Assembly: GCA_028823435.1 (NCBI GenBank)
Contig: JAPKBK010000001.1
Coordinates: 1-29,237 of the forward strand
Length of the DNA stretch: 29,237 bases
Origin: Flavobacteriales bacterium
GTDB lineage: Bacteria > Bacteroidota > Bacteroidia > Flavobacteriales_D > Sanyastnellaceae
Reading direction: 5' to 3'
Part shown: piece by piece, positions 5,800 through 29,099 of the stretch
Position numbering within the stretch: position 1 is the first letter of the stretch
How the letters are laid out: each line of letters begins with the position of its first letter
Notes under the pieces: generated by a model
The model's database searches: none
Told to the model about the DNA's origin: nothing
The model's input: the letters and a program-made list of their open reading frames with translations, nothing else
Translations under genes and position numbers: made by a program

Positions 5800-5847
5800 A
5801 TAAGTCAAAAATCCGACCTTTTAATTTTTTGGCGCGATTTTAGTTAC

Positions 5848-5855
5848 TAGATTAC
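5848..5855 (+). promoter_or_regulatory. Candidate -7 element TAGATTAC, 4 nt before the kinase ATG
   Basis: TAnnTT core; same 4-nt spacing to ATG as at glmS, thiL, pyrC, the OMP and the M1 peptidase. The last two bases deviate from consensus. Confidence 0.4.
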
Positions 5856-5859
5856 CCAT

Positions 5860-7299
5860 ATGGGCTTAAGATTTAGAATTTTTATCGGAATGCTTGCAGT
5901 TGTGTTGGTTGCTCTAGTAGCTACCGCAGTTGTTGCTTTCGACTTTTCCCAAAAACAAGAACTGGCCTATAACAGCCAGAGACTGTTAAGAAAAGAGGCT
6001 GCCTTAAGCAGAAGCTTAGACTATGTTCTCACAAGGCAGGGGGGAAGCCTTCCATCGGACAGTATTTCTATCGTTTTTACAGACCACATCTGTGAGTTGG
6101 CGGACGTCCACAGTCTCACGTTCAGCTTATATAGGCCAGACGGCGTTTTAGTGACCACATCAGCCTCGTTTGAGAACGAGAACCTTCAGCCTGACTTAGC
6201 GTTAGACCAGCGCCTGCTTGATAAGCTTAAATGGAAAGGGGACCGTGTTGTTGTGAAGGAAACGTTAGGCCCAAACGAAATAACACGTGTTCATTGGGTG
6301 GTGACGGCCGATGATGGAGCTCCCTTATTAATCGCGACTGCGAGATATAACCCGAGACCATTAACCCAAGGGGGCATCAAGCCTTTTCTAAACCGATTGG
6401 CTCCAGTTTATTTGTTTCTATTTCTAGGCGCGATGCTCATCGCATATCTCATCGTTCAGTCAATCCTCAGGCCGCTTCATCGGTTAAGGTTAGAGATGGC
6501 ACAAGTAGACCCCCTAGGCAACACAACGTCCTTAGATCACAAATGGAATGACGAAGTAGGCGAACTTGTAGATCAGTATAACGCACTCCTTTCTAAGCTT
6601 AGAGAAAGCCTGGTTAGCAGGGCAAAAGATGAACGAGAGGGTGCCTGGAGAGAGATGGCACAACAAGTTGCCCATGAGATAAAAAACCCACTCACACCTC
6701 TCAAGCTGGGCATTCAGCAGCTTGAACGCGCATGGAACGACAAGGCTGATGACTTTCCGGATAGATTGAAACGGTTTTCTGCGACAGCAATATCTCAAAT
6801 AGATGTTCTTGCAACGATTGCAGAAGACTTTGCACTCCTTGCAGTCGTTCGTGAGGCCGAAATAATCTCAGTTGACTTAAACAATGTCGTCAATAACGCG
6901 GCTCACCTATACGGGGAAGAATGTGTTCTTGTAGAAAGTCAATCACACAAGATCCTGGTCGAGGGTGACGCCAGCCGCCTGATGCGCGCCTTCAATAATC
7001 TTATTGCCAATGCACTTGATTCGATGTACGATGCGAAATCAAAGGAGCCCATTAAAGTTGAGATTACAGAGGATGAAGATTTTGCGATTGTCAAGGTTAT
7101 CGATACAGGCATAGGGATTCCGCCCGAGAAGATGGCGCGTATTTTTGAGCCCAGATTCACAACAAAAACGCATGGCTTAGGCTTAGGCCTAGCGATGGTT
7201 AAAAGCATTGTTGAGCAATCAAAAGGCGAGGTGTCAGTGGTGTCAAAAGAAGGCAAGGGCGCCACCTTTACCATTAAGCTTTTAAAAGCCCGTAAATAA
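5860..7299 (+). CDS. Membrane sensor histidine kinase (2 TM, periplasmic sensor, HAMP, HisKA, HATPase), NtrY-like H-box
   Basis: H-box AWREMAQQVAHEIKNPLTP, N-box FNNLIANA, G1 DTGIGIP, F-box IFEPRFTTK, G2 GLGLGL. No response regulator in the window. Confidence 0.95.
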   Translation: MGLRFRIFIGMLAVVLVALVATAVVAFDFSQKQELAYNSQRLLRKEAALSRSLDYVLTRQGGSLPSDSISIVFTDHICELADVHSLTFSLYRPDGVLVTTSASFENENLQPDLALDQRLLDKLKWKGDRVVVKETLGPNEITRVHWVVTADDGAPLLIATARYNPRPLTQGGIKPFLNRLAPVYLFLFLGAMLIAYLIVQSILRPLHRLRLEMAQVDPLGNTTSLDHKWNDEVGELVDQYNALLSKLRESLVSRAKDEREGAWREMAQQVAHEIKNPLTPLKLGIQQLERAWNDKADDFPDRLKRFSATAISQIDVLATIAEDFALLAVVREAEIISVDLNNVVNNAAHLYGEECVLVESQSHKILVEGDASRLMRAFNNLIANALDSMYDAKSKEPIKVEITEDEDFAIVKVIDTGIGIPPEKMARIFEPRFTTKTHGLGLGLAMVKSIVEQSKGEVSVVSKEGKGATFTIKLLKARK

Positions 7300-8053
7300 C
7301 CGGTCGACTTGGTGAAGCATCAAGGTCGAAAGGGGCCACCTGTAGACTCAAAGCATATAAGCCGTCTGGAGCGCTGTCTGGAGCGAAAACGAACTCAGTG
7401 ATTGTTGCAGACCTGCGCGGCGTGCTACCCACTCCAAAAAAGGCGCGGTGGCTTTCTAAGGCACCTCCATCAACCTCTTTGTCGACGGATGGAAGGTCTA
7501 GTAAAAGATGCTGTACCCCCCTTTGAACCAATCTATTTGTAAAATCAACATCCAAGTACGGCGGATTCGAGTTTGCCCAGTCTTTTGATTTCTTTTCAAT
7601 GTCGTTAGGGAGTGTGCGAATAATCAAGGATGGTGGCAAAGGTTCCGTAGCGGATAACCCGCCAGGAAGCTGAGACCCTGTAATCACAAAGTCCCCACCT
7701 TTCTGTTCGGGGGAAATTGACACAAGCAGGCAAGGCATCAATAAGGGCATTGAAATGTCATTGACAGATTCTGCTTCTTTTGTGATGTGACCCAGGCACT
7801 CTGTATGTGTGCCGTGGCCGTGAGGATTGAAGCTTACGTTTGTAAAGTTTACAGCGCCACCCAGCGCTACGCTACCCACAAAACCTTCTTCTTTTACGGG
7901 CTCAAAATGTGGTCGTCCCACATACCACGCCGCGGGACCCTCCCCTTTGCGAGGGTCTCGAAGTGGGAGACTAAGGTCAATGGGAGACGAAAGGTCAACT
8001 GTTTTAGAGGACCCGTTCCAATGTAAGGCAATGTTTATTTTAGAAAAATCCAT
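7274..8053 (-). CDS. Cyclase-family metal-dependent hydrolase (kynurenine formamidase KynB-like)
   Basis: FNPHGHGTHTECLGH metal motif, LDLPSVD, H...F, TITEF, and APFDLDASPSRP C-terminus. I moved the start to ATG 8053 because the TTG at 8068 overlaps the U-tract of the upstream terminator. Confidence 0.85.
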   Translation of the reverse strand: MDFSKINIALHWNGSSKTVDLSSPIDLSLPLRDPRKGEGPAAWYVGRPHFEPVKEEGFVGSVALGGAVNFTNVSFNPHGHGTHTECLGHITKEAESVNDISMPLLMPCLLVSISPEQKGGDFVITGSQLPGGLSATEPLPPSLIIRTLPNDIEKKSKDWANSNPPYLDVDFTNRLVQRGVQHLLLDLPSVDKEVDGGALESHRAFFGVGSTPRRSATITEFVFAPDSAPDGLYALSLQVAPFDLDASPSRPVIYGLLKA

Positions 8054-8066
8054 AAAGTAAAGAAAC

Positions 8067-8097
8067 AAAAAAAAGGCGCCCCGTTAAGGACGCCTTT
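8067..8097 (-). terminator. Rho-independent terminator of the OMP gene
   Basis: Minus strand AAAGGCGUCC-UUAACG-GGGCGCCUUU (10-bp stem with one G-U pair), with a U8 tract at 8074-8067, 27 nt after the OMP stop. Confidence 0.9.
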
Positions 8098-8124
8098 CAG
8101 TAATATTATTAATTCCGTTGCGTA

Positions 8125-8958
8125 TTAGTCAAAAAGGAATCCGACACGGATCGCGCCGTTAAAAACGTTTCCAAGAGATGTGTTAGAAACTTGGTTAGGG
8201 TAAGTATACCCTTGCTCGTAGTAATCGTAGAAAATATCTCCCTCAAGAACATTGAAAGGAAGCTCACCTACAAAGCTGTCAGCAATAGCTGCTCCTGCTG
8301 TTGTAGGATCAAAAGCACCATTGAATTGAATGTTGAATGCCGTGAGGTCACTTGTTTCAATAGTGTGGTTACCGAAAGAAGTTGTTCCGAAACCTAGACC
8401 AGCCTCAAATCCAACATAAATCGCATCAGAGAAGTAGTAATCAGCACCGAAGAGTAAGTTTAAACCCATAGAGCTGTATGCCTGCTTGTTTGTTAAATCC
8501 CAAGTCACGTATACATCAGGTTGCCCTACGTTGTCAAGATCATTTGGCCCCCAAGACTCAATCATGTCAGTGCGACTGCCCATCATGTAGTATGCCTCGA
8601 TACCGAAATAAGGGCTAAGGTTGTCAGTTCCAGAGAAGTGAATCTCGTAACCAGGCGCAATGCCAATCAGAGAGTTTGATGTCTCCATATTTAACTGTGG
8701 ACTCACAGGATCTCCAAGCTGCTCACCTTCTTGGTAGTAAGCATATGTTCCAGAAGTAGAACCTACAGTCAATGATACGCGAAACGCCTTATCATCATCA
8801 AGGAAATTACGATACTTAATGGTCGTGCCATCAATAGGGCTATTGCCAAAAGGAGTAAGGTTTACCTCTACGTTGTGCTCTCCGCCCAACTGCTTTTGCG
8901 CCTGTGCGCTTGTGAATACTAGCGAGAAAATCGCTAGAGTGAACATTAGTTTTTTCAT
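8125..8958 (-). CDS. Outer-membrane beta-barrel protein (probably 8-stranded) with signal peptide
   Basis: Signal peptide MKKLMFTLAIFSLVFTSAQA|Q; alternating amphipathic strands (GIAPGYEIHF, LSPYFGIEAYY, GLNLLFGADYYFSDAIYVGFEAGLGF); C-terminal strand GAIRVGFLFD. Confidence 0.85.
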   Translation of the reverse strand: MKKLMFTLAIFSLVFTSAQAQKQLGGEHNVEVNLTPFGNSPIDGTTIKYRNFLDDDKAFRVSLTVGSTSGTYAYYQEGEQLGDPVSPQLNMETSNSLIGIAPGYEIHFSGTDNLSPYFGIEAYYMMGSRTDMIESWGPNDLDNVGQPDVYVTWDLTNKQAYSSMGLNLLFGADYYFSDAIYVGFEAGLGFGTTSFGNHTIETSDLTAFNIQFNGAFDPTTAGAAIADSFVGELPFNVLEGDIFYDYYEQGYTYPNQVSNTSLGNVFNGAIRVGFLFD

Positions 8959-8962
8959 ACCC

Positions 8963-8970
8963 TAAATATA
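8963..8970 (-). promoter_or_regulatory. Candidate -7 element TATATTTA, 4 nt before the OMP ATG
   Basis: Minus strand TATATTTA-GGGT-ATG. A second candidate, CATATTTG, lies at 9029-9022. Confidence 0.45.
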
Positions 8971-9108
8971 TTTAATTTCAGTTTTCAAAGTGCAATAACG
9001 GGAATACTGAGCAGAATCAAGCAAATATGTAGATATTAACACTCACGTTTCACTTGTTAATAACATCAAAAAGGAGTTTTAACAGCTGATTATCAATAAT
9101 GTAGGTCG

Positions 9109-10968
9109 TTATTCGACGGTAACACTTTTTGCTAAATTTCTAGGCTGATCTACATCACACCCTCTTAAAACAGCAATTCTATAACTCAAAAGCTGCAAAG
9201 GGATCACACTTAATAGCGGCGCGAGTGAGTCCACACATCTTGGAATTTCGATGACGTGATCTGCCAGAGACGCTGCCTCCGAGTCGCCTTCGGTAACGAT
9301 CGCAATCAGCTTACCTCCGCGCGCTTTAACTTCTTGAATGTTGCTTACGACTTTTTCATAAACATCATCCTTGGTCGCGATAAATATGACAGGCATATCA
9401 TCGTCAATCAACGCGATAGGGCCGTGCTTCATTTCTGCAGCTGGGTAGCCCTCAGCGTGTATGTAACTGATTTCTTTAAGCTTTAATGCGCCTTCTAAAG
9501 CCACGGGAAATTGATACCCTCGACCCAAATACAGCGCGTTTTCAGCTGTTTCAAATTTAGAGGCGATCGTATCGATAAAATCAGCTTGCTTCAGGACAGT
9601 CTCAACCAATTCAGGGATCCCGTTTAGCTCGGTGAGCAAGCGTAGAAATCGCTCACGAGGAAGGCTCCCTTTTTTAAACCCAACATGCAGCGCGATCATT
9701 GAAAGAACCGCAATTTGAGAAGTGAACGCCTTTGTAGAAGCAACACCAATTTCTGGTCCAGCGTGCGTATACGCTCCGCTTTCAGTTTCACGAGCGATAC
9801 TTGACCCCACGACATTGCAAACACCGAAAACATGAGCTCCCGCCTCTTTTGCCGTTTTAATGGCAGCAAGTGTGTCAGCTGTCTCTCCACTTTGGGAAAT
9901 GGCGATGACCACGTCGTTAGGACGAATAATTGGGTTTCGATACCTGAATTCAGAGGCATATTCTACTTCAACAGGAATCCGAGTGAACTCCTCCAGTAAA
10001 TATTCCGCCACCAAACCTGCATGCCAACTCGTTCCACAACCCAAAATGAGAATACGAGAGGCATTTTGCCACCTGTCCCAATGGTCGTCAATTCCCGCCA
10101 TTTTAATTTCACCCAACTTCAGGTTTATACGCCCTCTTATCGAATCACGAATGGAGCGTGGTTGCTCAAAGATCTCCTTCAGCATAAAATGCTCGTATCC
10201 GGCTTTTTCAATCGCTTCTAGTTCGATTTCTAAGGCGTGGACCTCTGGTGTTATTGCAACATTAGAAATGGTTCGTATTCGAAGACCTTCATTTAAATCT
10301 AGAGCGGCAACCTCCTCATCTTCCAAATACACAACATTCTTCGTGTACGGTATGATGGGCGTAGCGTCTGAAGCGACGTAAAAGGCGCCATCTTCCCCCA
10401 TTCCGATTACCAGTGGACTAGACTTCCTTGCCGCAATTAATCTGTCAGGATGTTCTCGGTCAATCACCACAATGGCATATGCTCCCACCACTTGCTTCAG
10501 TGCAGATCTTACAGCATCAAATAAACTTAATTCTGACCCCAACATGATTTCCTCAATGAGGTGAACAAGTACCTCCGAGTCTGTGTCGCTTAAAAGTGCG
10601 TGGCCCCTTTGGTCTAAAGTCTCACGAAGTGCAGCATAATTTTCAATGATGCCATTATGAATGATTGCAATCCGTCCTTTGCTCGCCCTGTGTGGATGTG
10701 CATTGACGTCATTAGGCGGACCATGGGTTGCCCACCTTGTGTGGCCGATTCCCACATTGCCTAAAAGCACTTCTTTCCCAACGTGCGAGAGAAGGTCTTT
10801 AACTTTCCCTTTCTTTTTTCGAACAACAAGCTTCGCAGGCTCAGTCTTTGTGGATTCTATAACCGCAACACCAGCGCTATCGTAACCACGGTATTCTAAC
10901 CGCTTTAAACCATCAATAAGAATGGGGAAAGCGGGTTTGGGTCCCAGATATGCAACAATTCCACACAT
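9109..10968 (-). CDS. glmS: Glutamine-fructose-6-phosphate aminotransferase (isomerizing)
   Basis: MCGIV N-terminal Cys, LEYRGYDSAG, GHTRWATHG, HNGIIENY, ISQSGETADT, EIGVASTKAFT, EMKHGP, PRNLAKSVTVE. Confidence 0.99.
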   Translation of the reverse strand: MCGIVAYLGPKPAFPILIDGLKRLEYRGYDSAGVAVIESTKTEPAKLVVRKKKGKVKDLLSHVGKEVLLGNVGIGHTRWATHGPPNDVNAHPHRASKGRIAIIHNGIIENYAALRETLDQRGHALLSDTDSEVLVHLIEEIMLGSELSLFDAVRSALKQVVGAYAIVVIDREHPDRLIAARKSSPLVIGMGEDGAFYVASDATPIIPYTKNVVYLEDEEVAALDLNEGLRIRTISNVAITPEVHALEIELEAIEKAGYEHFMLKEIFEQPRSIRDSIRGRINLKLGEIKMAGIDDHWDRWQNASRILILGCGTSWHAGLVAEYLLEEFTRIPVEVEYASEFRYRNPIIRPNDVVIAISQSGETADTLAAIKTAKEAGAHVFGVCNVVGSSIARETESGAYTHAGPEIGVASTKAFTSQIAVLSMIALHVGFKKGSLPRERFLRLLTELNGIPELVETVLKQADFIDTIASKFETAENALYLGRGYQFPVALEGALKLKEISYIHAEGYPAAEMKHGPIALIDDDMPVIFIATKDDVYEKVVSNIQEVKARGGKLIAIVTEGDSEAASLADHVIEIPRCVDSLAPLLSVIPLQLLSYRIAVLRGCDVDQPRNLAKSVTVE

Positions 10969-10972
10969 ACTT

Positions 10973-10980
10973 CGAAGTTA
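10973..10980 (-). promoter_or_regulatory. -7 element TAACTTCG, 4 nt before the glmS ATG
   Basis: Minus strand TAACTTCG-AAGT-ATG fills the 14-bp intergenic gap. The same octamer and spacing precede thiL. Confidence 0.6.
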
Positions 10981-10982
10981 AT

Positions 10983-12332
10983 TCAGTGACTACAAGTAAG
11001 AACGAGTCTGGCGCGATTTAAATCAACACCAGTACCCCTAATAACGACCCCTTGGATAGAAATTCCAGCTCGGCTAGACACAATATACAAGGGCGGAATG
11101 GGATCTTCAGGAGAGAAATTACCATACGCGAATCCCGCTTCTCTGTTAAGTAGATGTTGTATTGTTCTGCTTATGTTGAAACGATACTCTTTCGTAGAGT
11201 AGTCATAGTAACCATCAATGTTTATACCTGGAGAGACTTGATCTGGCGTGGATATAGAAATACCCTCAGGGTTTTCTGTCAGGATAAAAAGTTGCTCATG
11301 TGGGGGGTATCGAGAATCGAAGAAGGACGCGTCAAGCGGTAGGATTAATTCGGCCTTTTGAACTGCACGCTCGGGACCCAACGAATCAGTAATTGAATTT
11401 AAAAATGGAATTCGCAATTGGGTTTTAAGCCCAGAACCAGACATGATGTATAGAGACTGATCTCCAGTCACGAATGCCGAGTCAGAAGGGGGGTTATTTA
11501 GGTATGACAATTCACCGACATAATCCTGGCTAAACATATTCACTCTCGCGCTTAGAGGGCTGATGATGAAATCGTAGAACGAGGTATCGTTGTCGTTGTG
11601 GTAGTGGAGTCGCATCAAGCTCAATCCAGATGAAATATCGATTCCTGCAGCACCCACACCATCACCCATCGTTGAGACAACAATCCCGGGTAAGAAATTT
11701 AACCACGACTCATTGTCCTGGAAAACCAAGGTGTCCTGATCGAGAATGGATTGTCCAAACGCAAGATTCATGTTTAAACGAATCTGAGACACAACAGTAT
11801 CCTCACCGATAATTAAATCTTGTGACGGATTGAGAGAAACCGGTCCCTGCGAGGCGTCGTTTAAAATATCATGGGTAACCTCGGGGGAGAAATTTGAGTA
11901 ATAAGCTGAATCGTAGGAGAGCGAATCGGTGAGTTGTTGAACGAGCATGCTTTGGTCACTTAACTGCCCATAGGTGTCGCCAGTGAACCGAAGACTTAAA
12001 AAGAGACTGTCAACCTGAGGGTTGGATCCGAAATCTATTCCTGGGGCACTAAGACGGAGTTGCGAAGCAAATCCAGCAGTGGTCCAACCTATTCTGGGGG
12101 TGAAAACCCGACCTAGAACAGCAGTACTCAGTCTCGCTGTCGAAAGAGAATCCTCTCGAACCGTCACCATTTCGACGGTTAAAGTGTCAGATGTGTAGAC
12201 CCCAAACATATCAGATTCTGGCTGAAGCCCTAGTCCGATAGAGGAGTCTGGCTTTTTACAGCCAACAAATATAATAAGGCACCATAAAATCCAGAAGGCT
12301 GCCCGAGGGATGTTAGCTTTTTGCTTCATCAT
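10983..12332 (-). CDS. DUF4270-family lipoprotein
   Basis: Lipoprotein signal ending IIFVG|CKKPDSS; G.GLQP, VREDSL.T, F..QLRL, G...RL and Y.FNI..TIQ patterns; recalled synteny between the GlgA-like gene and glmS in Bacteroidota. Confidence 0.8.
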   Translation of the reverse strand: MMKQKANIPRAAFWILWCLIIFVGCKKPDSSIGLGLQPESDMFGVYTSDTLTVEMVTVREDSLSTARLSTAVLGRVFTPRIGWTTAGFASQLRLSAPGIDFGSNPQVDSLFLSLRFTGDTYGQLSDQSMLVQQLTDSLSYDSAYYSNFSPEVTHDILNDASQGPVSLNPSQDLIIGEDTVVSQIRLNMNLAFGQSILDQDTLVFQDNESWLNFLPGIVVSTMGDGVGAAGIDISSGLSLMRLHYHNDNDTSFYDFIISPLSARVNMFSQDYVGELSYLNNPPSDSAFVTGDQSLYIMSGSGLKTQLRIPFLNSITDSLGPERAVQKAELILPLDASFFDSRYPPHEQLFILTENPEGISISTPDQVSPGINIDGYYDYSTKEYRFNISRTIQHLLNREAGFAYGNFSPEDPIPPLYIVSSRAGISIQGVVIRGTGVDLNRARLVLTCSH

Positions 12333-12338
12333 AGGGCG

Positions 12339-12346
12339 CGAATATA
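12339..12346 (-). promoter_or_regulatory. Candidate -7 element TATATTCG, 6 nt before the DUF4270 ATG
   Basis: Minus strand TATATTCG-CGCCCT-ATG in the 18-bp intergenic gap. Confidence 0.5.
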
Positions 12347-12350
12347 TCTA

Positions 12351-13181: not shown

Positions 13182-13212
13182 AGTTTGTGCTCTCTTCAGG
13201 TTAGACGAACAC

Positions 13213-13243
13213 CAAATATAGCTAATTTTACGGCTAAATCCAA
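13213..13243 (-). promoter_or_regulatory. Bacteroidota promoter TTG-N20-TATATTTG for the GlgA-like gene
   Basis: Exact TAnnTTTG at 13220-13213, TTG at 13243-13241, 20-nt spacer; ATG 31 nt downstream. Confidence 0.75.
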
Positions 13244-13282
13244 GTAATTACATAGGATACAGGGCGATAAGCTTCCTAAAAA

Positions 13283-14137: not shown

Positions 14138-14158
14138 GCCACTTTATCGGTACTTTGT
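14127..14158 (+). promoter_or_regulatory. Candidate promoter TTG-N21-TACTTTGT for tatA-mltD-DUF4837
   Basis: TTG at 14127-14129 and TACTTTGT at 14151-14158. The same octamer precedes the M1 peptidase. The ORF-track GTG start at 14157 falls inside this element. Confidence 0.5.
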
Positions 14159-14174
14159 GGCAAATAACGAATTC

Positions 14175-14399
14175 ATGTTACTAGCGTTTTTGACATCAAA
14201 CTATCTTCTGTTTATCCAAAATATTGGAGGCGGAGGAATTGCATTAATTCTCCTTGTGGTATTGCTGCTTTTCGGTGGACGTAAAATTCCAGAACTCATG
14301 CGTGGCCTGGGTCAAGGCTTGAAAGAGTTTAAGGATGCGAATAACAAGGATGACGACAGCACGTCAGACAAAGCTTCGGACGACAACAAATCTAAGTGA
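14175..14399 (+). CDS. tatA: Twin-arginine translocase TatA/TatE subunit
   Basis: TM helix then [24 protein letters not shown] and an acidic tail; ATG 14175 preferred as start. Confidence 0.95.
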
Positions 14400-16704: not shown

Positions 16705-19238
16705 GCTATGATAAACTTGGCGCTGTTTGTTGTGCGTTGGTTTTGATACCAAACCGCCACATAAGACCCCTCGGACCAACCCTCTAGATCGAGAGAAACC
16801 TCAACATTCTCGATGAGAGATTTGCTGAGAATCACCCTTCCATTGATGTCCCAAATTTTGATTAAATCGGCCTCAAAATCGCTTTTTAAGGTGATTGATG
16901 TAGATGCTGGAGAAGGAAATGCAGTGGCTGTAGCGCTCGCTAAATCAGGCGCATCGATAGAAAGAGAAATGTCACCATTTGCAAAGGCGTATTGTCCTTT
17001 TCTCAGTGATGAAACTTTGAAAACACCGTTGCCGTTTGTCAACGACCCTGCCTGCCATGTGTAGTCCGGATATTGCACCCATGTAGCGGCTGAATGAGGT
17101 CGCCACGCGAGGAAAGCACTTTCCTCATCGCCATAGAAAAGATCGTAATCTAAACCCTCGTCGTTGTTGCCGACATAGGAGAACCGCGCGTCGATCGTGA
17201 GGGCCTCGGTCCCTTCGACTCCGTCTTCCCAAGTTCCGTCCACAGTCCAAAAATGTGTCGCACTTATTTCGTCGACATAAAACGCTGTGGGCTCACTGTC
17301 GGGAGCGGCCCAATGATGTTCAATTCGAGCGATGACGCTGTCCGTAATGTTGTCGCACCCCAGTCTCATTTCAACCCAAGGCATCGTTGATAATCCTGTC
17401 GCTTCGGTAATTGCTACGGTGTGATCTAACCTTCCTTGGTTGAGCTTTCCGTCAGCATTAAGTGCGATGAGGACATAGGGTTCGGGGTGTGAAATTGTCA
17501 CCTCATCATACGCTCCCCCAACACGCACTTCTACAAGCGTTGTGTCCCATTCGGCATTCCAAAGCGTAACATCGAGCGGTTCATTCTCGTGGAAATGAGT
17601 GCAAGCACGTAGCTTTTGGTTTAAATACAGCGTGGTTTCAAACCCATCACCCCCAGCTCCTGTTTCAGTAACAGTGGAGTCAATGAGCCAAGTAGAAAAG
17701 CCAGGCTGGTAAATTTGTGCATCGAAAAAAGGATCAAGATCCAACCCGGTGACATCCTCAAGCGTGAGACGAAAGACCTCTGCATCCATGTGGCTGTCGA
17801 AGTGGGTAGAAATAACCGATTGGCATGCGCTGCGGTACAGTTCGTCACCGAGATATGCTCTGAGGTTGTGATGTATAGACGCGCCCTTGTAATACGTGGT
17901 GCGGCCGTAAATTTGCGCGTCCGGCATCGGAGAAAGAGGATGGAAACCCTCGTCCTGTATGTGGCACTCCTCTAACACAAACTGCTGATTGTCTTTCACA
18001 AGATCAATAAATTCCCCGTGCCCATCTTTAAGTTCAATAAAAAGATGGCTGGAGTATTCAGCCGGGCCTTCTTTAATCCACATGTGGTTATGAATCGTGG
18101 GAGCCACGAGGTCTCCCCACCAAAGGTGACCGAGTTCGTGAGAAAAAAGATCACCATTCGCACTCACGCTTTGCTCGATCATAAAGCGTGGATAGGAGAT
18201 ATTTGTCGGGACTTCCAATGCCCCATCTGTGGTAAGAACATACCCCACTCTTTCCCATGCATAAGGTCCCCACCAGTATTCGAGCGCATCGATGGCGTAT
18301 CCGATGTCAATGAATTTATTTGACATGAGGTTGATGTCCTCCGCTTTGGCGGTAAGCCTAACAGGAATGTCTCCATATTCTCCTGTATGGACGAAGTTGC
18401 TGTCGACATAGGTAGACACAGCAAACGCAGCCTGGTGAGTCGTAATGGGGTGTTCGAGGATGAAGCTCCGGGTTAATGTGTCTCCTTCTTCAAACGTCTC
18501 TCCCAGAAAGGTTCCTTGAAGGTGGGCTTTCATTCCGTCTGCGCTTCGGATGTTCCAAGAGTATGTCGCCCTTTCCACAAAGTTATCGAAGCATGGATGC
18601 CAAACCTTGCCGTAATTCGGGGGGATGCTTGTAAGACCAATCCCCATGTGGTAGATGTATCCAGCAGTAAAGTAGACCCCTCCCCAAGAAGGATCCTGTC
18701 CAGGGTGTCCGCCATAGAAGACTTCTATTTCGTGGGCATCCCCGGATTGAAAAACAGCGTTCGGAGAAGGAACAATGAGTCGCCCGTTTTCGTGAACGAA
18801 CCCAGAACTTGCCCCATCGATATTAACAGAGTCAACAGTTAATGACACGAGATCAAACCAAATCTCTTCCGCGCCACTTTCAATAACGGCGACCGTAATC
18901 AGGGCTCTGGCCTGCATCTGCTGTAGGCCGTAGTTTGTAAGGTCGAGATCCAAAGCGTAATGAACAATATCGAACGTGTCGCTTCTCGAAATCGATTCCG
19001 ACATGTCGTAATTTTCTACGAAAGACCTGTTGCTTAAAGCGTTCATGCCGTCGCCCACTTCAGAATGCACATGGCCATTCAAACCCAAACCCCGACACCC
19101 CATGGGAGAGAACACCCTTTGATTGGTCGTGTATTCAGACAAATTCTTAATTTTTGTTTGGCCAAAAGAAGGTGTAGAATTCGCGGTGAGGCTGAATAAA
19201 ATCACGAATACCGCAAAAGAGTGTGTAAGTCGTTGCAT
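16698..19238 (-). CDS. M1-family zinc metallo-aminopeptidase with T9SS C-terminal sorting domain
   Basis: HELGH-x18-E (HELGHLWWGDLVAPTIHNHMWIKE) at 18140-18126, GALEV exopeptidase-motif variant, YYKGA tyrosine motif, signal peptide ending SFG|Q, and CTD FPSPAS...IWDINGR...GSY...KFII. ATG 19238 is preferred over GTG 19244. Confidence 0.9.
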   Translation of the reverse strand: MQRLTHSFAVFVILFSLTANSTPSFGQTKIKNLSEYTTNQRVFSPMGCRGLGLNGHVHSEVGDGMNALSNRSFVENYDMSESISRSDTFDIVHYALDLDLTNYGLQQMQARALITVAVIESGAEEIWFDLVSLTVDSVNIDGASSGFVHENGRLIVPSPNAVFQSGDAHEIEVFYGGHPGQDPSWGGVYFTAGYIYHMGIGLTSIPPNYGKVWHPCFDNFVERATYSWNIRSADGMKAHLQGTFLGETFEEGDTLTRSFILEHPITTHQAAFAVSTYVDSNFVHTGEYGDIPVRLTAKAEDINLMSNKFIDIGYAIDALEYWWGPYAWERVGYVLTTDGALEVPTNISYPRFMIEQSVSANGDLFSHELGHLWWGDLVAPTIHNHMWIKEGPAEYSSHLFIELKDGHGEFIDLVKDNQQFVLEECHIQDEGFHPLSPMPDAQIYGRTTYYKGASIHHNLRAYLGDELYRSACQSVISTHFDSHMDAEVFRLTLEDVTGLDLDPFFDAQIYQPGFSTWLIDSTVTETGAGGDGFETTLYLNQKLRACTHFHENEPLDVTLWNAEWDTTLVEVRVGGAYDEVTISHPEPYVLIALNADGKLNQGRLDHTVAITEATGLSTMPWVEMRLGCDNITDSVIARIEHHWAAPDSEPTAFYVDEISATHFWTVDGTWEDGVEGTEALTIDARFSYVGNNDEGLDYDLFYGDEESAFLAWRPHSAATWVQYPDYTWQAGSLTNGNGVFKVSSLRKGQYAFANGDISLSIDAPDLASATATAFPSPASTSITLKSDFEADLIKIWDINGRVILSKSLIENVEVSLDLEGWSEGSYVAVWYQNQRTTNSAKFIIAH

Positions 19239-19263
19239 AGCCACAAAGTACGACGGACCTTTA
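19233..19263 (+). promoter_or_regulatory. Candidate promoter TTG-N20-GACCTTTA, 4 nt before the FKBP ATG
   Basis: TTG at 19233-19235 (inside the M1 coding sequence), GACCTTTA at 19256-19263, then CGGT-ATG. The -7 match is imperfect. Confidence 0.4.
19243..19250 (-). promoter_or_regulatory. Candidate -7 element TACTTTGT, 4 nt before the M1 peptidase ATG
   Basis: Minus strand TACTTTGT-GGCT-ATG; TTTC at 19274-19271 lies 20 nt upstream. Confidence 0.5.
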
Positions 19264-19267
19264 CGGT

Positions 19268-19741
19268 ATGGAAAAAATAATTGTAGCCCCAGGGAAGTTT
19301 ATTGAGATTGAATATATCTTAAGTGAAGCAACGGAAGACGGTCAATTGGGAGAATTGCTGGAAGAGTGCCCTGCTGAACAAGCCTTTGGGTTCAACGTTG
19401 GCTCAGGAGAAGTCCTAGAATCATTTGAAAAAGCGCTTAGCGGACTGCAAGCCGGCGAACCTTTTGAAGTTGCTATTTCTTGCATAGATGCATATGGGCC
19501 CACTACAGAGGACGCCATTGTGATGATCCCTAAAAATGTGTTTGAGATTGATGGTGAATTCGACGAAGAGAATATCAAAGTCGGAGAGGCAATCCCCATG
19601 AACGATGAAGAAGGAAATGAAATTTTCGGTGTTGTAGTTGACGTTTTGGAAGACGAAGTACAGATGGATTTCAACCATCCATTTGCAGACTTGGACCTTC
19701 ATTTTTCTGGTCGAATTTGTGATATTAGAGAAGAAGCCTAA
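19268..19741 (+). CDS. slyD: FKBP-type peptidyl-prolyl isomerase, SlyD-like, with IF chaperone domain and no His/Cys tail
   Basis: IEYIL, F.VGSGEV..SFEKAL.G...GE, DAYG, insert-in-flap segment, and MDFNHPFAD.DLHFSG (NHPLAG variant). Confidence 0.85.
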   Translation: MEKIIVAPGKFIEIEYILSEATEDGQLGELLEECPAEQAFGFNVGSGEVLESFEKALSGLQAGEPFEVAISCIDAYGPTTEDAIVMIPKNVFEIDGEFDEENIKVGEAIPMNDEEGNEIFGVVVDVLEDEVQMDFNHPFADLDLHFSGRICDIREEA

Positions 19742-19757
19742 ACCACGCTCTTAGGTG

Positions 19758-19765
19758 TAACTTCG
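19758..19765 (+). promoter_or_regulatory. -7 element TAACTTCG, 4 nt before the thiL ATG
   Basis: TAACTTCG-CACC-ATG; identical octamer and spacing to glmS. Confidence 0.6.
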
Positions 19766-19769
19766 CACC

Positions 19770-20798
19770 ATGGAACGTACGGAGATACAAGAATTGGGAG
19801 AGTTCGCTTTAATAAATCGACTCACGCAAGAATTAAAGAATAACGCACCATCTACTTTGTTAGGTGTGGGTGATGACGCAGCGGTAATTGACCCTTTAGG
19901 CAAACGCGTTGTTGTCTCGACAGACATGCTTGTGGAAGGCGTGCATTTCGATTTAAGCTATGTGCCGTTAAAACATTTGGGATATAAAGCCGTAATCTCA
20001 AACATCAGTGATGTGTGTGCGATGAATGCCAAACCTACTCAAATCGTAGTAGGCTTAGGTGTCTCAAATAGGTTTTCTGTCGAAGCTCTCGAGGAATTGT
20101 ACGATGGAATCAAGACCGCGTGTCAGCTTTACGAAGTAGACCTCGTAGGAGGAGATACAACCTCGATTCCCTCAGGACTTACCTTGTCTGTTACAGCTTT
20201 GGGGCTTGTCGATGCAGATAAAATTGTAACACGCTCAGGAGCCAGTGCAGGAGATTTGCTTGTGGTTTCAGGAGAGCTTGGGTCTGCGTACTTGGGCCTA
20301 CAAGTTCTAGAGCGTGAAAAAGAAGTCTTCAAGGAAGCCCCAACAGCACAACCAGAACTCAAAGACCACAGCTATATTATTGAACGTCAACTGAAGCCGG
20401 AGGCGAGGACAGACATCATTAGAGAGCTTGCAGACCTTGAGATTAAACCTACAAGCATGATCGATATCTCTGACGGTTTGGCCTCAGAATGCCTTCATAT
20501 CGTCGCAGCGAGTGGAGTAGGGGTTCGTGTATATGAGGAGAAACTCCCCATGGATCCCAAAACATATGATACTGCACGTGAATTCAACTTGGACCCTACG
20601 GTGTGCATGCTAAGCGGTGGAGAAGATTATGAGCTTTTATTTACGGTGCATCAAGATGATTTCGAAAAAATACGCAACCACCCCAAACTCTCTATTATCG
20701 GTCACATGACTGAGGATGTCAATGAGCAAGTCATGGTGACCAACAGTGGCCAAGACATCACGCTCAAAGCGCAGGGTTGGGACAGTATAAAAGCGTAA
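19770..20798 (+). CDS. thiL: Thiamine-monophosphate kinase
   Basis: GEFALI, GVGDDAAV, STDMLVEGVHF, NISDVCAMNA, LVGGDT, MIDISDGLASE, GGEDYELLFT. Confidence 0.97.
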   Translation: MERTEIQELGEFALINRLTQELKNNAPSTLLGVGDDAAVIDPLGKRVVVSTDMLVEGVHFDLSYVPLKHLGYKAVISNISDVCAMNAKPTQIVVGLGVSNRFSVEALEELYDGIKTACQLYEVDLVGGDTTSIPSGLTLSVTALGLVDADKIVTRSGASAGDLLVVSGELGSAYLGLQVLEREKEVFKEAPTAQPELKDHSYIIERQLKPEARTDIIRELADLEIKPTSMIDISDGLASECLHIVAASGVGVRVYEEKLPMDPKTYDTAREFNLDPTVCMLSGGEDYELLFTVHQDDFEKIRNHPKLSIIGHMTEDVNEQVMVTNSGQDITLKAQGWDSIKA

Positions 20799-20810
20799 AC
20801 GAGCAAATAC

Positions 20811-23874: not shown

Positions 23875-23895
23875 ATCGCAATTAAACCTCCGCCC

Positions 23896-24867: not shown

Positions 24868-26657
24868 CCGAAATGTTTTCGAATGGCCATTGCCACTCCA
24901 CGACCTACCGCCTCAAGGAGCTCCTCTAAGTTCGCTTCACGGATTTTTGTGACTGAACCGAACCTCGACATCAACTTCTTTTTAATGGCTGGCCCCACAC
25001 CCTTAATGTCATCCAATTCTGAATGTAATGACGCTTTGCTTCGTCTTTTTCTGTGATGCGCTAAAGAAAACCGATGTGCCTCGTTTCTCATTTGTTGAAT
25101 GACCCTTAATGTGGGCGATCTCTTATCCAAATAAATGGGTGCAGAATCTCCAGCAAAGAAAAGCTCTTCGAGTCGCTTGGCGATGCCCACGACGGTGATG
25201 ACGCCCCTCAATCCCAGCGCCTCAACCGCTTCCATGGCGTGACTTACTTGCCCCTTTCCGCCGTCTATCACAAGCAACTGCGGCAGATCTTTCTTTTCTT
25301 CGAGCAGGCGTTTATATCTGCGATAAACCGCCTCCCGCATACTGGCAAAATCGTCAGGACCTACAACGGTACGGATATTGAAATTTCTATAATCTCGCTT
25401 GGCGGGTTTGCCATTTCGAAACACAACGCACGCAGATGTAGGGCTTGTTCCTTGCAAATTTGAGTTGTCGAAACACTCAATATGAACAGGGTGCTCTGTT
25501 AATCTTAAGTCCGCCTGCATGGTGTCCATAAGCCGTTTTGTAGCTGCTTCTGGATCAATCTGCTCCTGATGTTTCTGTTTATCCTTCATAAAGAATCGGG
25601 CATTCTTTTCAGACATATCTACGAGGCGTTTTTTATCTCCTTTTTCAGGAACGGAAATAGAAACACCGGAGATTTCGAGATCAACCTTAAGCGGTGTAAA
25701 TATTTTTTTGCTTTTGCTTTTAAACTTTTCGCGAATAAGCGGAATTGCCGCTTCGAGAATTGTGGCATCGGATTCATCCAATCTTTTCTTTACCTCAAAG
25801 GTGGACCCCTTAACGATTGCCCCTGAAACGACCAGCATAAAGTTGACATACCCCGCACTGCTGTCACTTGCGATTGTAAACACATCAACACCATCTATTT
25901 TAGGGTGTACGACAGTGCTTTTTGCTTGATACTTGTCAAGTGATTTCAATTTGGAATTAAAAATATCCGCCCTTTCAAAGGCCAAACCCACCACCGCTTC
26001 ATTCATCTCCCTTTTCAAATGATCTCGAACGACCCCCAGGTTTCCTCTTAAAACGTGTTGAATTGATTTTATGCTCTTGCTATAATCGTCCTCCGACTGT
26101 TTCCCCACACAGGGCCCCAAACAATTTCCGACGTGATACTCCAAGCATACTCTGAACTTTTTATGAAGGATATTCTTCTCACTTAAATTCAACGAACACG
26201 ATCGGATGGGATATAATTTCTTACACAGATCTAGCACAGTCTTCATGCTTTTAAGACTCGTAAATGGCCCAAAATACTCCCCCTTTATGCTCATGACGCG
26301 CGTTGAAAAAACCCTTGGAAACCGTTCTTTTTTAAGAACAATAAACGGGAAGGTTTTGTCATCTTTAAGGAGGATATTGTATACCGGTCGATACTCCTTA
26401 ATAAGGTTGTTTTCTAAAAGCAGCGCGTCTTGCTCGGTGGGAGCTACAATCCATTCAATATCTCGGATTTTGCGGACGAGCAATTTGGTCTTGTTATTTT
26501 CGTATGTTTTTCTATTAAAGTAACTGGACACTCGCTTCTTCAGGTCCTTCGCCTTTCCAACATAGATGACCACACCGGCCTCATTAAAATGTTTATAGAC
26601 CCCAGGCTGATGAGGCAGACGCGTGAGGATGTTTTGTATGTGTTGTGAGGCTTTCAT
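24864..26657 (-). CDS. uvrC: Excinuclease ABC subunit C
   Basis: GIY-YIG PGVY...YVGKAKDLKKRVSSYF, LKDDKTFP, Cys cluster, IECFDNSN, DGGKGQ, RNEAHRF, HhH LDDIKGVG. Confidence 0.98.
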   Translation of the reverse strand: MKASQHIQNILTRLPHQPGVYKHFNEAGVVIYVGKAKDLKKRVSSYFNRKTYENNKTKLLVRKIRDIEWIVAPTEQDALLLENNLIKEYRPVYNILLKDDKTFPFIVLKKERFPRVFSTRVMSIKGEYFGPFTSLKSMKTVLDLCKKLYPIRSCSLNLSEKNILHKKFRVCLEYHVGNCLGPCVGKQSEDDYSKSIKSIQHVLRGNLGVVRDHLKREMNEAVVGLAFERADIFNSKLKSLDKYQAKSTVVHPKIDGVDVFTIASDSSAGYVNFMLVVSGAIVKGSTFEVKKRLDESDATILEAAIPLIREKFKSKSKKIFTPLKVDLEISGVSISVPEKGDKKRLVDMSEKNARFFMKDKQKHQEQIDPEAATKRLMDTMQADLRLTEHPVHIECFDNSNLQGTSPTSACVVFRNGKPAKRDYRNFNIRTVVGPDDFASMREAVYRRYKRLLEEKKDLPQLLVIDGGKGQVSHAMEAVEALGLRGVITVVGIAKRLEELFFAGDSAPIYLDKRSPTLRVIQQMRNEAHRFSLAHHRKRRSKASLHSELDDIKGVGPAIKKKLMSRFGSVTKIREANLEELLEAVGRGVAMAIRKHFG

Positions 26658-26670
26658 TTAGTTCCCCAAA

Positions 26671-27057
26671 CTATTCCTTTTGCGCACGTTCTATCTGAGA
26701 TATTTTCTCGGTAATCTCTAACAAAACCTCCTTCATCGCCACGGGATGTTCCCACCACCAGGTGTGACTCCTCTCAAACTCAGCTGCGCTCACTTCGTGC
26801 TTCGCAAAGACTTCATAGTACGCCTCACCCAGCCTCTTTTTAACGTCATCATTTCTGAAAACACCGATCTTTGACGCTCCCTCAATGATTTGAATGTCAG
26901 CCATTAACATAACGAATTCAACCCTTTCTAGAATCCCTTCAGGCGGATTCACGTTTGCCAAATCGCGAGAATCTTCAGCGCAACCGACCCCTATAAATAA
27001 AACGAAGATTGCAGGTATTAAAATCCTATCTGTTAAACGTGAGACGCTGCCCAGCAT
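26671..27057 (-). CDS. DUF4296-family lipoprotein
   Basis: Hydrophobic stretch ending GVG|C; M..IQI.E and Y..VF.KH.V....F..S..WW..HP..M pattern; follows pyrC. The start is uncertain because it overlaps pyrC by 32 bp. Confidence 0.75.
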   Translation of the reverse strand: MLGSVSRLTDRILIPAIFVLFIGVGCAEDSRDLANVNPPEGILERVEFVMLMADIQIIEGASKIGVFRNDDVKKRLGEAYYEVFAKHEVSAAEFERSHTWWWEHPVAMKEVLLEITEKISQIERAQKE

Positions 27058-28387
27058 GATTTCCGTTTTCCGTTAAAATATTTACGCCATTCCACACCCT
27101 CGTACCATTGACCCATGTGCCTACGACATGGGATTTAAATTCGTGTCCCGTAAATGGGGACCACCCACATTTGTAAAGAATGTTTTCGCCCGTAACGGTC
27201 CATGCAGCGTCCGGGTTCACAAGGACCAAATCTGCTTGATATCCCTCTCGGATGTATCCTCGGTTTTCAAGTTGAAAGCATTCGGCCACTCTGTGAGACA
27301 TCAGTTCAACAACCCTTTCAACAGATATTACTCCTTGATGAACAAGGTCCAGCATTGCGGGCAAACCGTGTTGTACCAAAGGACCTCCTGACGGTGCTGA
27401 AAAATATTTCCCACTCTTCTCTTCAACTGTATGGGGCGCGTGATCAGTCGCGACAACATCGATTCTCCCATCGAGCAACGCGGCTCGTATTGCGGTTCGA
27501 TCTCTTTCGGTTTTTACTGCGGGATTCCATTTGATGTACGTCCCCTTATTGCTGTAATCGGCATCCGTAAACCAAAGGTGGTGGATACAAGCCTCAGCTG
27601 TAATACGTTTTTCAGAAAGCGCCTTATTGCCATCAAATAGACTTAACTCTTTTGCGGTAGAAATATGAAGGATGTGTAGCCTTGTACCCAGCTTTGACGC
27701 AAGCTCCGCGGCTTTTGAAGAGCTTTTATAACACGCCTCCGCGCTTCGGATTAAGTGATGCTGATCTATGGGGACATTCTCACCCCACCGCTCTTTTGCG
27801 GTGGCAATATTTGCCCTAATGATCGACTCATCTTCACAATGTGTAGCCACTAAAGTCGGGCTCTCTTTAAAGATCCCCTCTAAAACCTTTTCCTCATCGA
27901 CTAACATGTCTCCTGTAGATGAGCCCATAAACACCTTCACGCCGCAAATTCTTTTCGGATCAGTCTTCAGGACCTCGTCAATATTGCCATTGCTCGCCCC
28001 CATAAAGAAGCTGTAATTTACAGCACTTACCTCATCCGCCCTCTCGTACTTGTCTTGCAGAAGCTCTTGTGTCAATGCCTGGGGAATGGTGTTTGGCATT
28101 TCCATAAAAGAAGTGATGCCTCCCGCCGCCGCCGCCGCTGATTCAGTCGCGATCTCTGCTTTGTGGGTGAGGCCAGGTTCTCGAAAGTGTACTTGGTCAT
28201 CAATACATCCCGGCATGAGCCAGAACCCTTTTGCGTTCACAACCTCAGCGCCTTGGACCTCTTCTAATGTTAGAGACCCTTCTTTTACTTTTAAGATCAT
28301 TTCTCCTTCGACAAGGACGTCACCGACAAAGACGCGTCCCTCATTGACGATGTGGGCTTGGCTAAATAAAGTTCTACTTCTTGACAT
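27026..28387 (-). CDS. pyrC: Dihydroorotase (long form, amidohydrolase superfamily, QxH metal motif)
   Basis: DDQVHFREPG, EMPNT, GVKVFMGSSTG, HCEDE, HILHIST, IKWNP, ATDHAPH, KCGWSPF. Confidence 0.92.
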   Translation of the reverse strand: MSRSRTLFSQAHIVNEGRVFVGDVLVEGEMILKVKEGSLTLEEVQGAEVVNAKGFWLMPGCIDDQVHFREPGLTHKAEIATESAAAAAGGITSFMEMPNTIPQALTQELLQDKYERADEVSAVNYSFFMGASNGNIDEVLKTDPKRICGVKVFMGSSTGDMLVDEEKVLEGIFKESPTLVATHCEDESIIRANIATAKERWGENVPIDQHHLIRSAEACYKSSSKAAELASKLGTRLHILHISTAKELSLFDGNKALSEKRITAEACIHHLWFTDADYSNKGTYIKWNPAVKTERDRTAIRAALLDGRIDVVATDHAPHTVEEKSGKYFSAPSGGPLVQHGLPAMLDLVHQGVISVERVVELMSHRVAECFQLENRGYIREGYQADLVLVNPDAAWTVTGENILYKCGWSPFTGHEFKSHVVGTWVNGTRVWNGVNILTENGNHAGQRLTFNR

Positions 28388-29099
28388 GCTTCAAATTTAC
28401 CCTCATTTTCAAGACGCCCCAGAAGGCTTCATTAAAAATATCCATACTCATTTTAGACGTACCCAATTCTCGGTCGCTAAATGAGATTGGAATTTCGACT
28501 ATTTTAAAACCCCTTCGCTTCGCACGCAACTTCATTTCGATTTGGAATGCATACCCTATAAATTCAACCGAATCCAGTTCAATTGCCTCCAGAACCTCCC
28601 TGCGATAGCCCACAAATCCGGCGGTGCTGTCACGAACTCCCAGCCACAAAATCAAGTTTACGTATAAGGATGCGCCCCGACTCATGACCCTTCTTTTCAG
28701 AGGCCAGTTTACCACACCTCCTCCCTGAACATATCTAGACCCAACGGCTACTCCAGCCCCATTTTCAACACATGCTTTTTTTAAGCGAATGAGATCTTTA
28801 GGTGTGTGTGAGAAATCACAATCCATCTCAAAGACGTAGTTAAAATCTCTTTCAAGTGCCCACTTAAACCCCGCGATATAAGCTGTCCCTAGGCCTTGTT
28901 TCCCCTCCCTCTCCAATAAAAAGACACGACTTGCGTACTTTTTCATTTGTGCCTTCACAAGATCAGCTGTACCATCAGGGCTACCGTCATCAACAATAAG
29001 CACGTCAAACGCCTGATCTAAACCCACAACGGTTTCAATCATCTTCACAACGTTTTCCTTTTCGTTGTAAGTGGGTATTATGACTAAACTGTCACTCAT
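28374..29099 (-). CDS. Polyprenol monophosphomannose synthase-like GT2 (DPM1 family)
   Basis: IIPTYNE, VDDGSPDGT, KQGLGTAY, EMDCDFSH, GSRYV.GG, D.TAGF, GYAFQIEMK, EIPI.F.DR..G.SKMS. Confidence 0.92.
   Translation of the reverse strand: MSDSLVIIPTYNEKENVVKMIETVVGLDQAFDVLIVDDGSPDGTADLVKAQMKKYASRVFLLEREGKQGLGTAYIAGFKWALERDFNYVFEMDCDFSHTPKDLIRLKKACVENGAGVAVGSRYVQGGGVVNWPLKRRVMSRGASLYVNLILWLGVRDSTAGFVGYRREVLEAIELDSVEFIGYAFQIEMKLRAKRRGFKIVEIPISFSDRELGTSKMSMDIFNEAFWGVLKMRVNLKHVKK
28392..28399 (-). promoter_or_regulatory. -7 element TAAATTTG, 4 nt before the pyrC ATG, inside the GT2 3' end
   Basis: Exact TAnnTTTG; minus strand TAAATTTG-AAGC-ATG. Confidence 0.6.

Follow-up and report, generated by a model that had tools for sequence, protein, structure and literature searches.

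Bacteria of the phylum Bacteroidota do without Shine-Dalgarno pairing, and how their ribosomes locate start codons is still being worked out. A 29.2-kb stretch of DNA (hereafter the window), the longest contig of a Flavobacteriales genome assembly (JAPKBK010000001.1 of GCA_028823435.1; 1.93 Mb in 325 contigs, 44% GC, about 80% complete; this genome is labelled G000), raises the question of whether many of these bacteria's genes are transcribed from promoters so close to the start codon that the mRNA has no leader. The initial annotation of the window had listed six genes in which the hexamer TAnnTT lies exactly at -12 to -7 from the ATG (a kinase gene, an outer-membrane protein (OMP) gene, glmS, an M1 peptidase gene, thiL and pyrC), and had proposed that this is the -7 element of the Bacteroidota promoter, with transcription beginning on the A of the ATG or directly beside it. 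The six sites all have the stated sequence, and the estimate that about 0.2 matches would be expected by chance in 28 genes is close to the empirical value of about 0.3, which follows from a background frequency of about 1% for each gene and position. In our view it is probable that these boxes are sigma-A promoters which start transcription at the A of the ATG and give leaderless mRNAs for about 13-17% of the genes of G000.

The genes of G000 were called with a simple codon-usage open reading frame (ORF) caller, which gave 1644 genes, 1394 of them usable for TAnnTT profiling, and the profile records the position at which TAnnTT begins with respect to each gene's first in-frame ATG. The sharp peak that the initial annotation had expected at -12 was found: 159 of the 1394 genes have TAnnTT beginning at -12 and 50 have it at -13, as compared with about 15 for each of the other offsets from -60 to -14. 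Expressed as the spacer between the octamer and the ATG, the class with 4 nt (N4) is three times as large as that with 5 nt (N5), and the N3 and N6 classes are close to background; a minor shoulder is present at -14/-15. When relaxed boxes are allowed, the net excess rises to 15-17% of genes (about 215-235). If only the strict box TAHHTTTG is counted, it lies at -14 to -11 in 41 genes, as compared with about 96 (net) that have it 14-100 nt upstream, so that the leaderless class makes up about 30% of the recognisable promoters within 100 nt.

As position -12 is in frame with the start codon and TAA or TAG forms the first triplet of 47% of the boxes, the peak could have been a chance effect, or an artefact of taking the first ATG after an in-frame stop codon that supplies the TA. 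This was tested and rejected, and its probability is practically nil. The other in-frame offsets are near background (11 genes at -9, 23 at -15 and 12 at -18), and therefore the peak does not come from in-frame TAA or TAG stops; the out-of-frame position -13 is itself enriched. The excess also persists without gene calls, since TANNTTTG-N4-ATG occurs 69 times in the genome, against 15-21 times at the in-phase spacings N1, N7, N10 and N13, and TANNTT-N6-ATG 397 times, against 239-264 at in-phase spacings; it is conserved between species as well (see below). The triplet that follows the box is ATG in 180 cases, against 18-29 at control offsets, and GTG in 29, against about 8, and the same genome-wide triplet count gave no excess for TTG or for non-start codons. 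A strong preference for AUG is expected of leaderless genes, and it was observed here.

The next question is what kind of signal the box is. In Flavobacterium johnsoniae, the -7 element consists of T-12, A-11, T-8, T-7, T-6 and G-5, with the transcription start 4-5 nt after it (PMC6847099), and in F. psychrophilum the box lies at -12 to -5 (PMC9723704). In the 159 boxes at -12 of G000, where TAnnTT is fixed, T is found at -6 in 47% and G at -5 in 55%, and G occurs in only 11% at -10 and 4% at -9; at -1 a pyrimidine is favoured, and G is present in only 6%. The A at -11 is indispensable, as T[not A]nnTT is not enriched at -12 in the genome-wide count, whereas the T at -12 can partly be dispensed with (a net excess of about 37 genes has another base at -12 together with A at -11 and TT at -8/-7). 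These two properties match the behaviour of -10-type elements.

The flanks of the boxes adjoining an ATG were compared with those of leadered TAnnTTTG boxes located 22-70 nt before starts and of 387 chance boxes inside genes. The first two sets resemble each other and differ from the boxes in coding sequence in the frequency of A at -13 (0.14 and 0.13, against 0.37), G at -9 (0.04 and 0.08, against 0.29), C at -4 (0.42 and 0.46, against 0.16) and G at -1 (0.06 and 0.04, against 0.24). In both sets, patches rich in AT recur upstream at distances of about one, two and three helix turns, and the two AT profiles correlate with r = 0.69. None of these flank features was seen in the 387 chance boxes.

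The genomic context of the boxes points in the same direction. Where the upstream neighbour is transcribed divergently, 23% of the genes are preceded by the box, but only about 4% where the neighbour is co-directional and less than 12 nt away; where the gap is 20-40 nt, the proportion ranges from 24% (co-directional) to 40% (divergent). Leaderless genes are expected to be restricted to the heads of transcription units, and such a restriction was found in G000, where about one in four of the genes that necessarily stand first in a transcription unit would have the arrangement.

[quoted passage not shown] Such a signal would suit a phylum without Shine-Dalgarno pairing, A/T-rich motifs have been reported 7-9 nt before starts (PMC6028130), and all G000 genes taken together are A-rich from -14 to -10. 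The motif is, however, the promoter consensus, TTTG tail and scarcity of G at -10/-9 included, rather than a run of A, the need for A at -11 is exact, and the flanks and the upstream AT periodicity are those of leadered promoter boxes. The box is also nearly absent before operon-internal genes; these need translation signals too, which argues against this explanation. It was accordingly judged highly improbable.

The identification of the box with the Bacteroidota -7 element, and the start predicted to fall on or beside the A of the ATG, are thus strongly, if indirectly, supported by signature, context and conservation. The TAnnTT(TG) boxes 4-5 nt before an ATG would be ordinary housekeeping -7 elements (sigma-A, Bacteroidota type). 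RNA polymerase would begin on the A of the ATG or at most one base away, because the F. johnsoniae element extends from -12 to -5 and the start lies 4-5 nt beyond. The resulting mRNA would lack a 5' leader, and the ribosome would have to recognise the 5'-terminal AUG directly. It is from the peak, the promoter-like signature, the dependence on context and the conservation, all of which are observed, that we infer both the transcription start at these boxes and leaderless translation.

How precisely the start coincides with the A can be judged from the spacing. If it fell a few bases away, the transcripts would have leaders of 1-5 nt, or would begin inside the ATG and be translated from further downstream. 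In F. johnsoniae the distance between box and start is both 4 and 5 nt (PMC6847099), it is 5 nt in a quarter of the G000 cases, and the shoulder at -14/-15 in G000 is larger in G306, a genome of another family. A case in point is the DUF4270 lipoprotein gene of the window (minus strand, 12327..12346; TATATTCG, 6 nt, ATGATG), which the initial annotation had listed among its weaker cases with a spacer of 6 nt. Its signal peptide begins at the Met. The first ATG is replaced by TAA, TTT or TCA in the more distant members of the genus; because only the second ATG (12329) is kept in these, the true start is probably 12329, about 9 nt after the box, and a very short leader is possible. On the other hand, N4 cases outnumber N5 cases three to one with N3 and N6 near background, such a distribution would be expected from selection for a purine (here the A of the ATG) where transcription preferably starts, and G is avoided at -1. 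Leaders of 1-3 nt would moreover behave practically as leaderless ones. A general displacement of the start from the A is therefore considered improbable.

Several observations weigh against leaderless promoters as the whole account. The boxes that adjoin an ATG fit the full consensus less well (the 47% and 55% given above for T-6 and G-5), and TAHHTTTG is present in only 28 of the 159 boxes at -12. No clear -33 element (TTTG about 20 nt upstream) was seen in the sequence logo of the boxes, where a G at -35 and a T at -38 and -34 are faint; in its place, AT-rich patches are found at about -20, -30 and -40. F. johnsoniae has likewise been reported to lack a clear -33 element (PMC6847099). The gene calls come from a simple ORF caller applied to an assembly that is 80% complete and split into 325 contigs. 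One of the six sites of the window, that of the OMP gene, is not conserved: its T-12 is lost in the genus orthologues, where the region is merely AT-rich. Finally, RNA contigs of four runs, among the matches listed, span the start of glmS from the upstream gene, contigs of at least two runs span the start of the kinase gene (read-through from the atp genes), and others join the FKBP gene to thiL.

The RNA data are assembled contigs, and these reveal expression and some read-through rather than the 5' ends of transcripts. Six marine metatranscriptome runs contain the window, and the contigs of four of them, from four studies, were aligned to positions 5001-25000; uncovered parts and contig ends were not taken as evidence, except for a weak hint at 19288. 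Contig depth is about 240 over the OMP gene (the maximum of the window), about 89 over a glgA-like gene and about 28 over their neighbours, and it follows from such strong differences between genes that the organism is transcribed in situ. For glmS, the kinase gene and thiL, at least part of the RNA is read-through from upstream and their leaderless promoters may be secondary, and in some co-directional genes a leaderless promoter probably operates alongside read-through.

Such data raise the question of whether the boxes are functional but minor or conditional promoters for many genes, most of the mRNA being supplied by upstream promoters or read-through. Apart from the contigs across the glmS and kinase starts and the FKBP-thiL junction, this is favoured by the fact that of the 193 box-bearing genes 100 have a co-directional upstream neighbour, half of them with a gap of less than 40 nt. 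The contigs do not measure dominant 5' ends, however, and the 93 box-bearing genes with a divergent neighbour cannot be products of read-through. Between the divergent M1 and FKBP genes there are only 29 nt from start codon to start codon, and both boxes are invariant in the genus. As a general explanation this is rather unlikely, and it qualifies leaderless transcription from the boxes rather than excluding it.

Conservation was examined within the genus of G000, for which 17 further species-level genomes are available, of about 2.0-2.5 Mb when complete. In G005, a near-complete member of the same genus (424 kb were used; GlmS 72% identical), the box is found in 13.0% of genes against a background of 2.6%. 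Among 130 orthologue pairs of G000 and G005 with collinear N-termini, both members have the box in 16, one only in 8 and 7, and neither in 99, which corresponds to an odds ratio of 28 (Fisher p = 9e-10); the upstream sequence around the conserved boxes has often turned over. Between families, only 32 usable orthologue pairs were obtained with Fluviicola and 8 with F. pectinovorum. For the window itself, the matching region from 10 other species of the genus was compared (GlmS 72-86% identical), and judging from these alignments the predicted boxes of M1, FKBP, kinase and glmS are conserved in the genus, and those of thiL and pyrC are clade-specific.

A first case is the M1-family peptidase gene with a type IX secretion system (T9SS) tail, on the minus strand (TACTTTGT at 19243-19250, a 4-nt spacer and the ATG at 19238; site 19236..19250). 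TACTTTG and the 4-nt spacing are invariant in 10/10 genus genomes and the four spacer bases vary, in a protein that is only 36-54% identical across these genomes and matches Pfam M1 and Por_Secre_tail. The start codon, which the initial annotation had chosen itself, proved sound, as ATG 19238 is kept in 10/10 genus orthologues, the upstream GTG 19244 is not, and the signal peptide begins at the Met. Divergently from it, on the plus strand, lies the gene of an FKBP-type isomerase (GACCTTTA, 4 nt, ATG 19268; 19256..19270). It had been filed as a weaker case, but its putative promoter is among the best boxes: GAC[CA]TTTG-N4-ATG occurs in 9/9 relatives that have an orthologue, G000 itself having TTTA. 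Two back-to-back boxes are thus packed between start codons 29 nt apart on opposite strands (19231-19275), a gap that is conserved in the genus, and the upstream half of each promoter must lie in the first codons of the other gene. RNA contigs of at least two studies start at 19288, 20 nt inside the FKBP gene, which is compatible, as a weak hint only, with a start near ATG 19268; for the leadered promoters of tatA and the glgA-like gene, contig ends lie 14-27 nt inside the predicted starts.

The sensor histidine kinase gene (plus strand; TAGATTAC at 5848-5855, 4 nt, ATG 5860; site 5848..5862) has TAG[AC]TT at -12 (or -11) of the ATG in 10/10 genus genomes, with a T-run/TTGG kept about 17 nt upstream, and the N-terminal membrane helix of its product begins at the Met. 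In glmS (minus strand; TAACTTCG at 10973-10980, 4 nt, ATG 10968; site 10966..10980), the box fills a 14-nt gap behind the stop codon of the upstream gene. The start is certain here, because the N-terminus reads MCGI and the catalytic Cys directly follows the Met. TAA[AC]TT stands exactly at -12 in 7/11 genus genomes, and TAGCTG or TAATTG in the remainder. The box of pyrC, encoding dihydroorotase (minus strand; TAAATTTG at 28392-28399, 4 nt, ATG 28387; site 28385..28399), is partly conserved, with TACGCTTG, TAAAAT or TAAAGT at -12/-13 in four readable relatives. That of thiL (plus strand; TAACTTCG at 19758-19765, 4 nt, ATG 19770; site 19758..19772) is found only in G000 and its close relative G010; in the other members of the genus, thiL abuts the FKBP gene without a box.

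Of the OMP gene, which has no family match (minus strand; TATATTTA at 8963-8970, 4 nt, ATG 8958; site 8956..8970), the signal peptide begins at the Met and a separate conserved block lies at about -38 to -18 in the genus orthologues. Its box is doubtful as a leaderless promoter and may be a chance match in an AT-rich leader. The putative cyclase gene (minus strand; TTTCTTTA, 4 nt, ATG 8053; 8051..8065) had been the remaining weaker case. The sequences of all three weaker cases are as described, but the cyclase box is not credible, as it has T instead of A at -11 and T[not A]nnTT shows no excess genome-wide.

The initial annotation had also claimed that several upstream GTG or TTG start calls fall inside promoters. 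This holds for GTG 19244 of the M1 gene and GTG 14157 of tatA, both of which lie within TACTTTGTG. The called start TTG 8068 of the cyclase gene falls in the run of T that belongs to the upstream terminator, and it is not kept as a start codon in the genus. The tatA gene provides a contrast with a short leader (plus strand; TACTTTGT at 14151-14158, ATG 14175; site 14151..14177): the GTG of the ORF track lies inside the box, and Pfam TatA_B_E begins at residue 17 of the ATG-started protein. A leadered contrast is the glgA-like gene (minus strand; TATATTTG at 13213-13220, 31 nt, ATG 13181; site 13182..13220), of which box and leader are kept in 10/10 genus genomes and where RNA contigs of at least three studies end at 13180-13190.

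Is the arrangement peculiar to this lineage, as the initial annotation had supposed? The same gene-calling and profiling script was applied to G000, G005, the cultured Fluviicola chungangensis (4.3 Mb), Flavobacterium pectinovorum and G306 (2.27 Mb, 54% GC, another family; 200 kb scanned). TAnnTT at -12/-13 was found in 14.7% of the genes of G000 against a background of 2.0% (net 12.7%), in 11.7% against 2.8% in F. chungangensis, and in 18.1% against 1.4% in G306, as compared with 5.1% against 3.5% (net about 1.6%) in F. pectinovorum; the expected difference from a Flavobacterium genome was thus observed. Three further samples are too small to rank: G027 (163 kb, 7/115 genes), G018 (103 kb, 3/70 genes) and G257 (47 kb, 7/35 genes); G027 and G018 are both high in the whole-genome pattern counts. 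In these counts the strict pattern at N4 was set against the in-phase N7, a control preferred over the reversed pattern, which ignores promoter abundance. The values are 69 vs 15 in G000, 181 vs 134 in F. pectinovorum, 76 vs 51 in F. enshiense, 145 vs 45 in Fluviicola and 120 vs 71 in Sphingobacterium hungaricum.

The survey was extended to the order (201 genomes) and to the class (151 genomes). In the order, the family of the window has a median N4/N7 ratio of 2.9 (range 0.95-6.7), with G000 5th of 40 genomes; another family, f10, reaches similar values, and the majority of the remaining families lie at 1.0-2.4. In the class sample, a hand count gave about 20 genomes at a ratio of at least 2.5, in about ten families, the rest being near 1.0-1.5; one genome of this sample, G308, is unpublished, and none of the conclusions depends on it. 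The highest densities of TANNTTTG-N4-ATG in this sample were those of G306, G265 and G340 (f58) and of G257, G298 and G333 (f50), and these genomes have an excess of 50-74 per Mb, against 28 in G000. Hence, the claim of lineage specificity did not stand: the signal is equally strong in F. chungangensis, in the majority of the genera of the window's family and in several further families of the Bacteroidia. The trait is patchy and quantitative, high in this genus and not specific to it.

A link with genome compaction had also been suggested. Within the family, genome size correlates negatively with the N4/N7 ratio (Spearman -0.58) and with density (-0.51), correlations that are descriptive only, since related genomes are not independent; the density of boxes does fall with genome size. 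The absolute number of box-N4-ATG junctions, however, is unchanged (Spearman -0.14 for the absolute excess, with a median of 55 per genome). The link with small genomes therefore looks like dilution, that is, a roughly constant number of such genes among fewer genes in total.

A broader reading, in which leaderless initiation is a major and ancient trait patchily retained in the class Bacteroidia and the mapped model species are low outliers, is offered tentatively, and we regard it as somewhat doubtful. It would imply a roughly constant set of genes on box-N4-ATG promoters in many families, with about 50-110 strict-box junctions per genome and a full set several-fold larger. If this were true, leaderless genes would head at least a fifth of the transcription units in the small-genome lineages, and the textbook view of leadered Bacteroidota mRNAs would have been shaped by three mapped model species.

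With F. johnsoniae, F. psychrophilum and Bacteroides thetaiotaomicron, G000 has in common the sigma-A -7 box, the distance of 4-5 nt, the lack of Shine-Dalgarno sequences and the presence of a leaderless class. In F. johnsoniae 87% of leaders exceed 10 nt and about 13% are absent or very short (PMC6847099), in F. psychrophilum 5.5% of mRNAs are leaderless (PMC9723704) and in B. thetaiotaomicron about 3.7% of 5' UTRs are shorter than 10 nt (PMC7366714); the corresponding figure in G000, by box, is about 13-17% of genes. In Actinobacteria and Deinococcus-Thermus, a -10-like box some 10 nt ahead of the start codon has served to predict leaderless genes (Zheng et al. 2011; GeneMarkS-2 group C), and archaea too have well-described genes of this kind. 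The boxes of G000 resemble these in having a -10-type element at a fixed short distance, a strong preference for AUG and an enrichment at operon heads, but these surveys sought Pribnow-like boxes, whereas the box of G000 is the Bacteroidota-specific TAnnTTTG. Zheng et al. (2011) found leaderless genes in 1/37 Bacteroidetes/Chlorobi genomes (2.4%), which they named a possible underestimate, as non-Pribnow promoters would escape notice (PMC3160421), and GeneMarkS-2 places 90% of Bacteroidetes in the non-Shine-Dalgarno leadered group B (PMC6028130). Leaderless initiation has also loosely been called prevalent in Bacteroidetes (PMC5397173, PMC12123416). Our literature search found no paper documenting Flavobacteriales lineages with such a leaderless share.

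A promoter box abutting the AUG is already known, and the interest of the present case lies in its scale and distribution, not in its mechanism. The arrangement is far commoner in G000 than in the model Bacteroidota. According to the maps of transcription starts that have been published for three cultured species, the phylum has few leaderless mRNAs; for this and several other lineages the positional signal indicates the contrary, and cultured organisms that carry it, such as Fluviicola, offer a direct test ground. In practice, the box-N4-ATG rule corrects start codons which ORF callers have extended into the promoter (M1, tatA), marks the heads of transcription units in metagenome-assembled genomes, and is relevant to the design of expression constructs in these bacteria.

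Some further observations were made in the window and its relatives. The AtpA encoded by G000 shares 78-86% identity with its counterparts in uncultured Flavobacteriales, Crocinitomicaceae, Schleiferiaceae and Flavobacterium, and marine metagenomes from several studies carry DNA nearly identical to the window; the organism is therefore placed in the order Flavobacteriales, as a marine member. The glgA-like gene (12351-13220) is a glycogen-synthase-like gene of half length with the Glyco_transf_5 domain only. It is expressed and under constraint, because its first 90 residues are 93-97% identical in the genus, its promoter and leader are conserved and its RNA contig depth is the second highest in the window. 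In the gene at 24864-26657 (minus strand), the first codon in the orthologues L147, L149 and L151 is a GTG located 6 nt after a perfect TATCTTTG, and in three other genus members there is an ATG about 18 nt after the same TATCTTTG box; leader length and start codon, as predicted from these alignments, shift within one genus.

Directly after the OMP gene, a GC-rich hairpin with a T-run (8069-8124) is conserved in the genus, and RNA contigs of at least two runs carry adapter sequence at 8117, which suggests a frequent RNA end just past the OMP stop codon. In the kinase gene, RNA contigs of at least three runs from different studies diverge at 6692 into 170-255 nt of unrelated sequence, the first 30 letters of which are the same in those contigs; this may be a population variant or a rearrangement. 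Where two convergent genes overlap at their 3' ends, a contig of one RNA run has 9 nt (CTCAGTGAG) inserted behind 16696.

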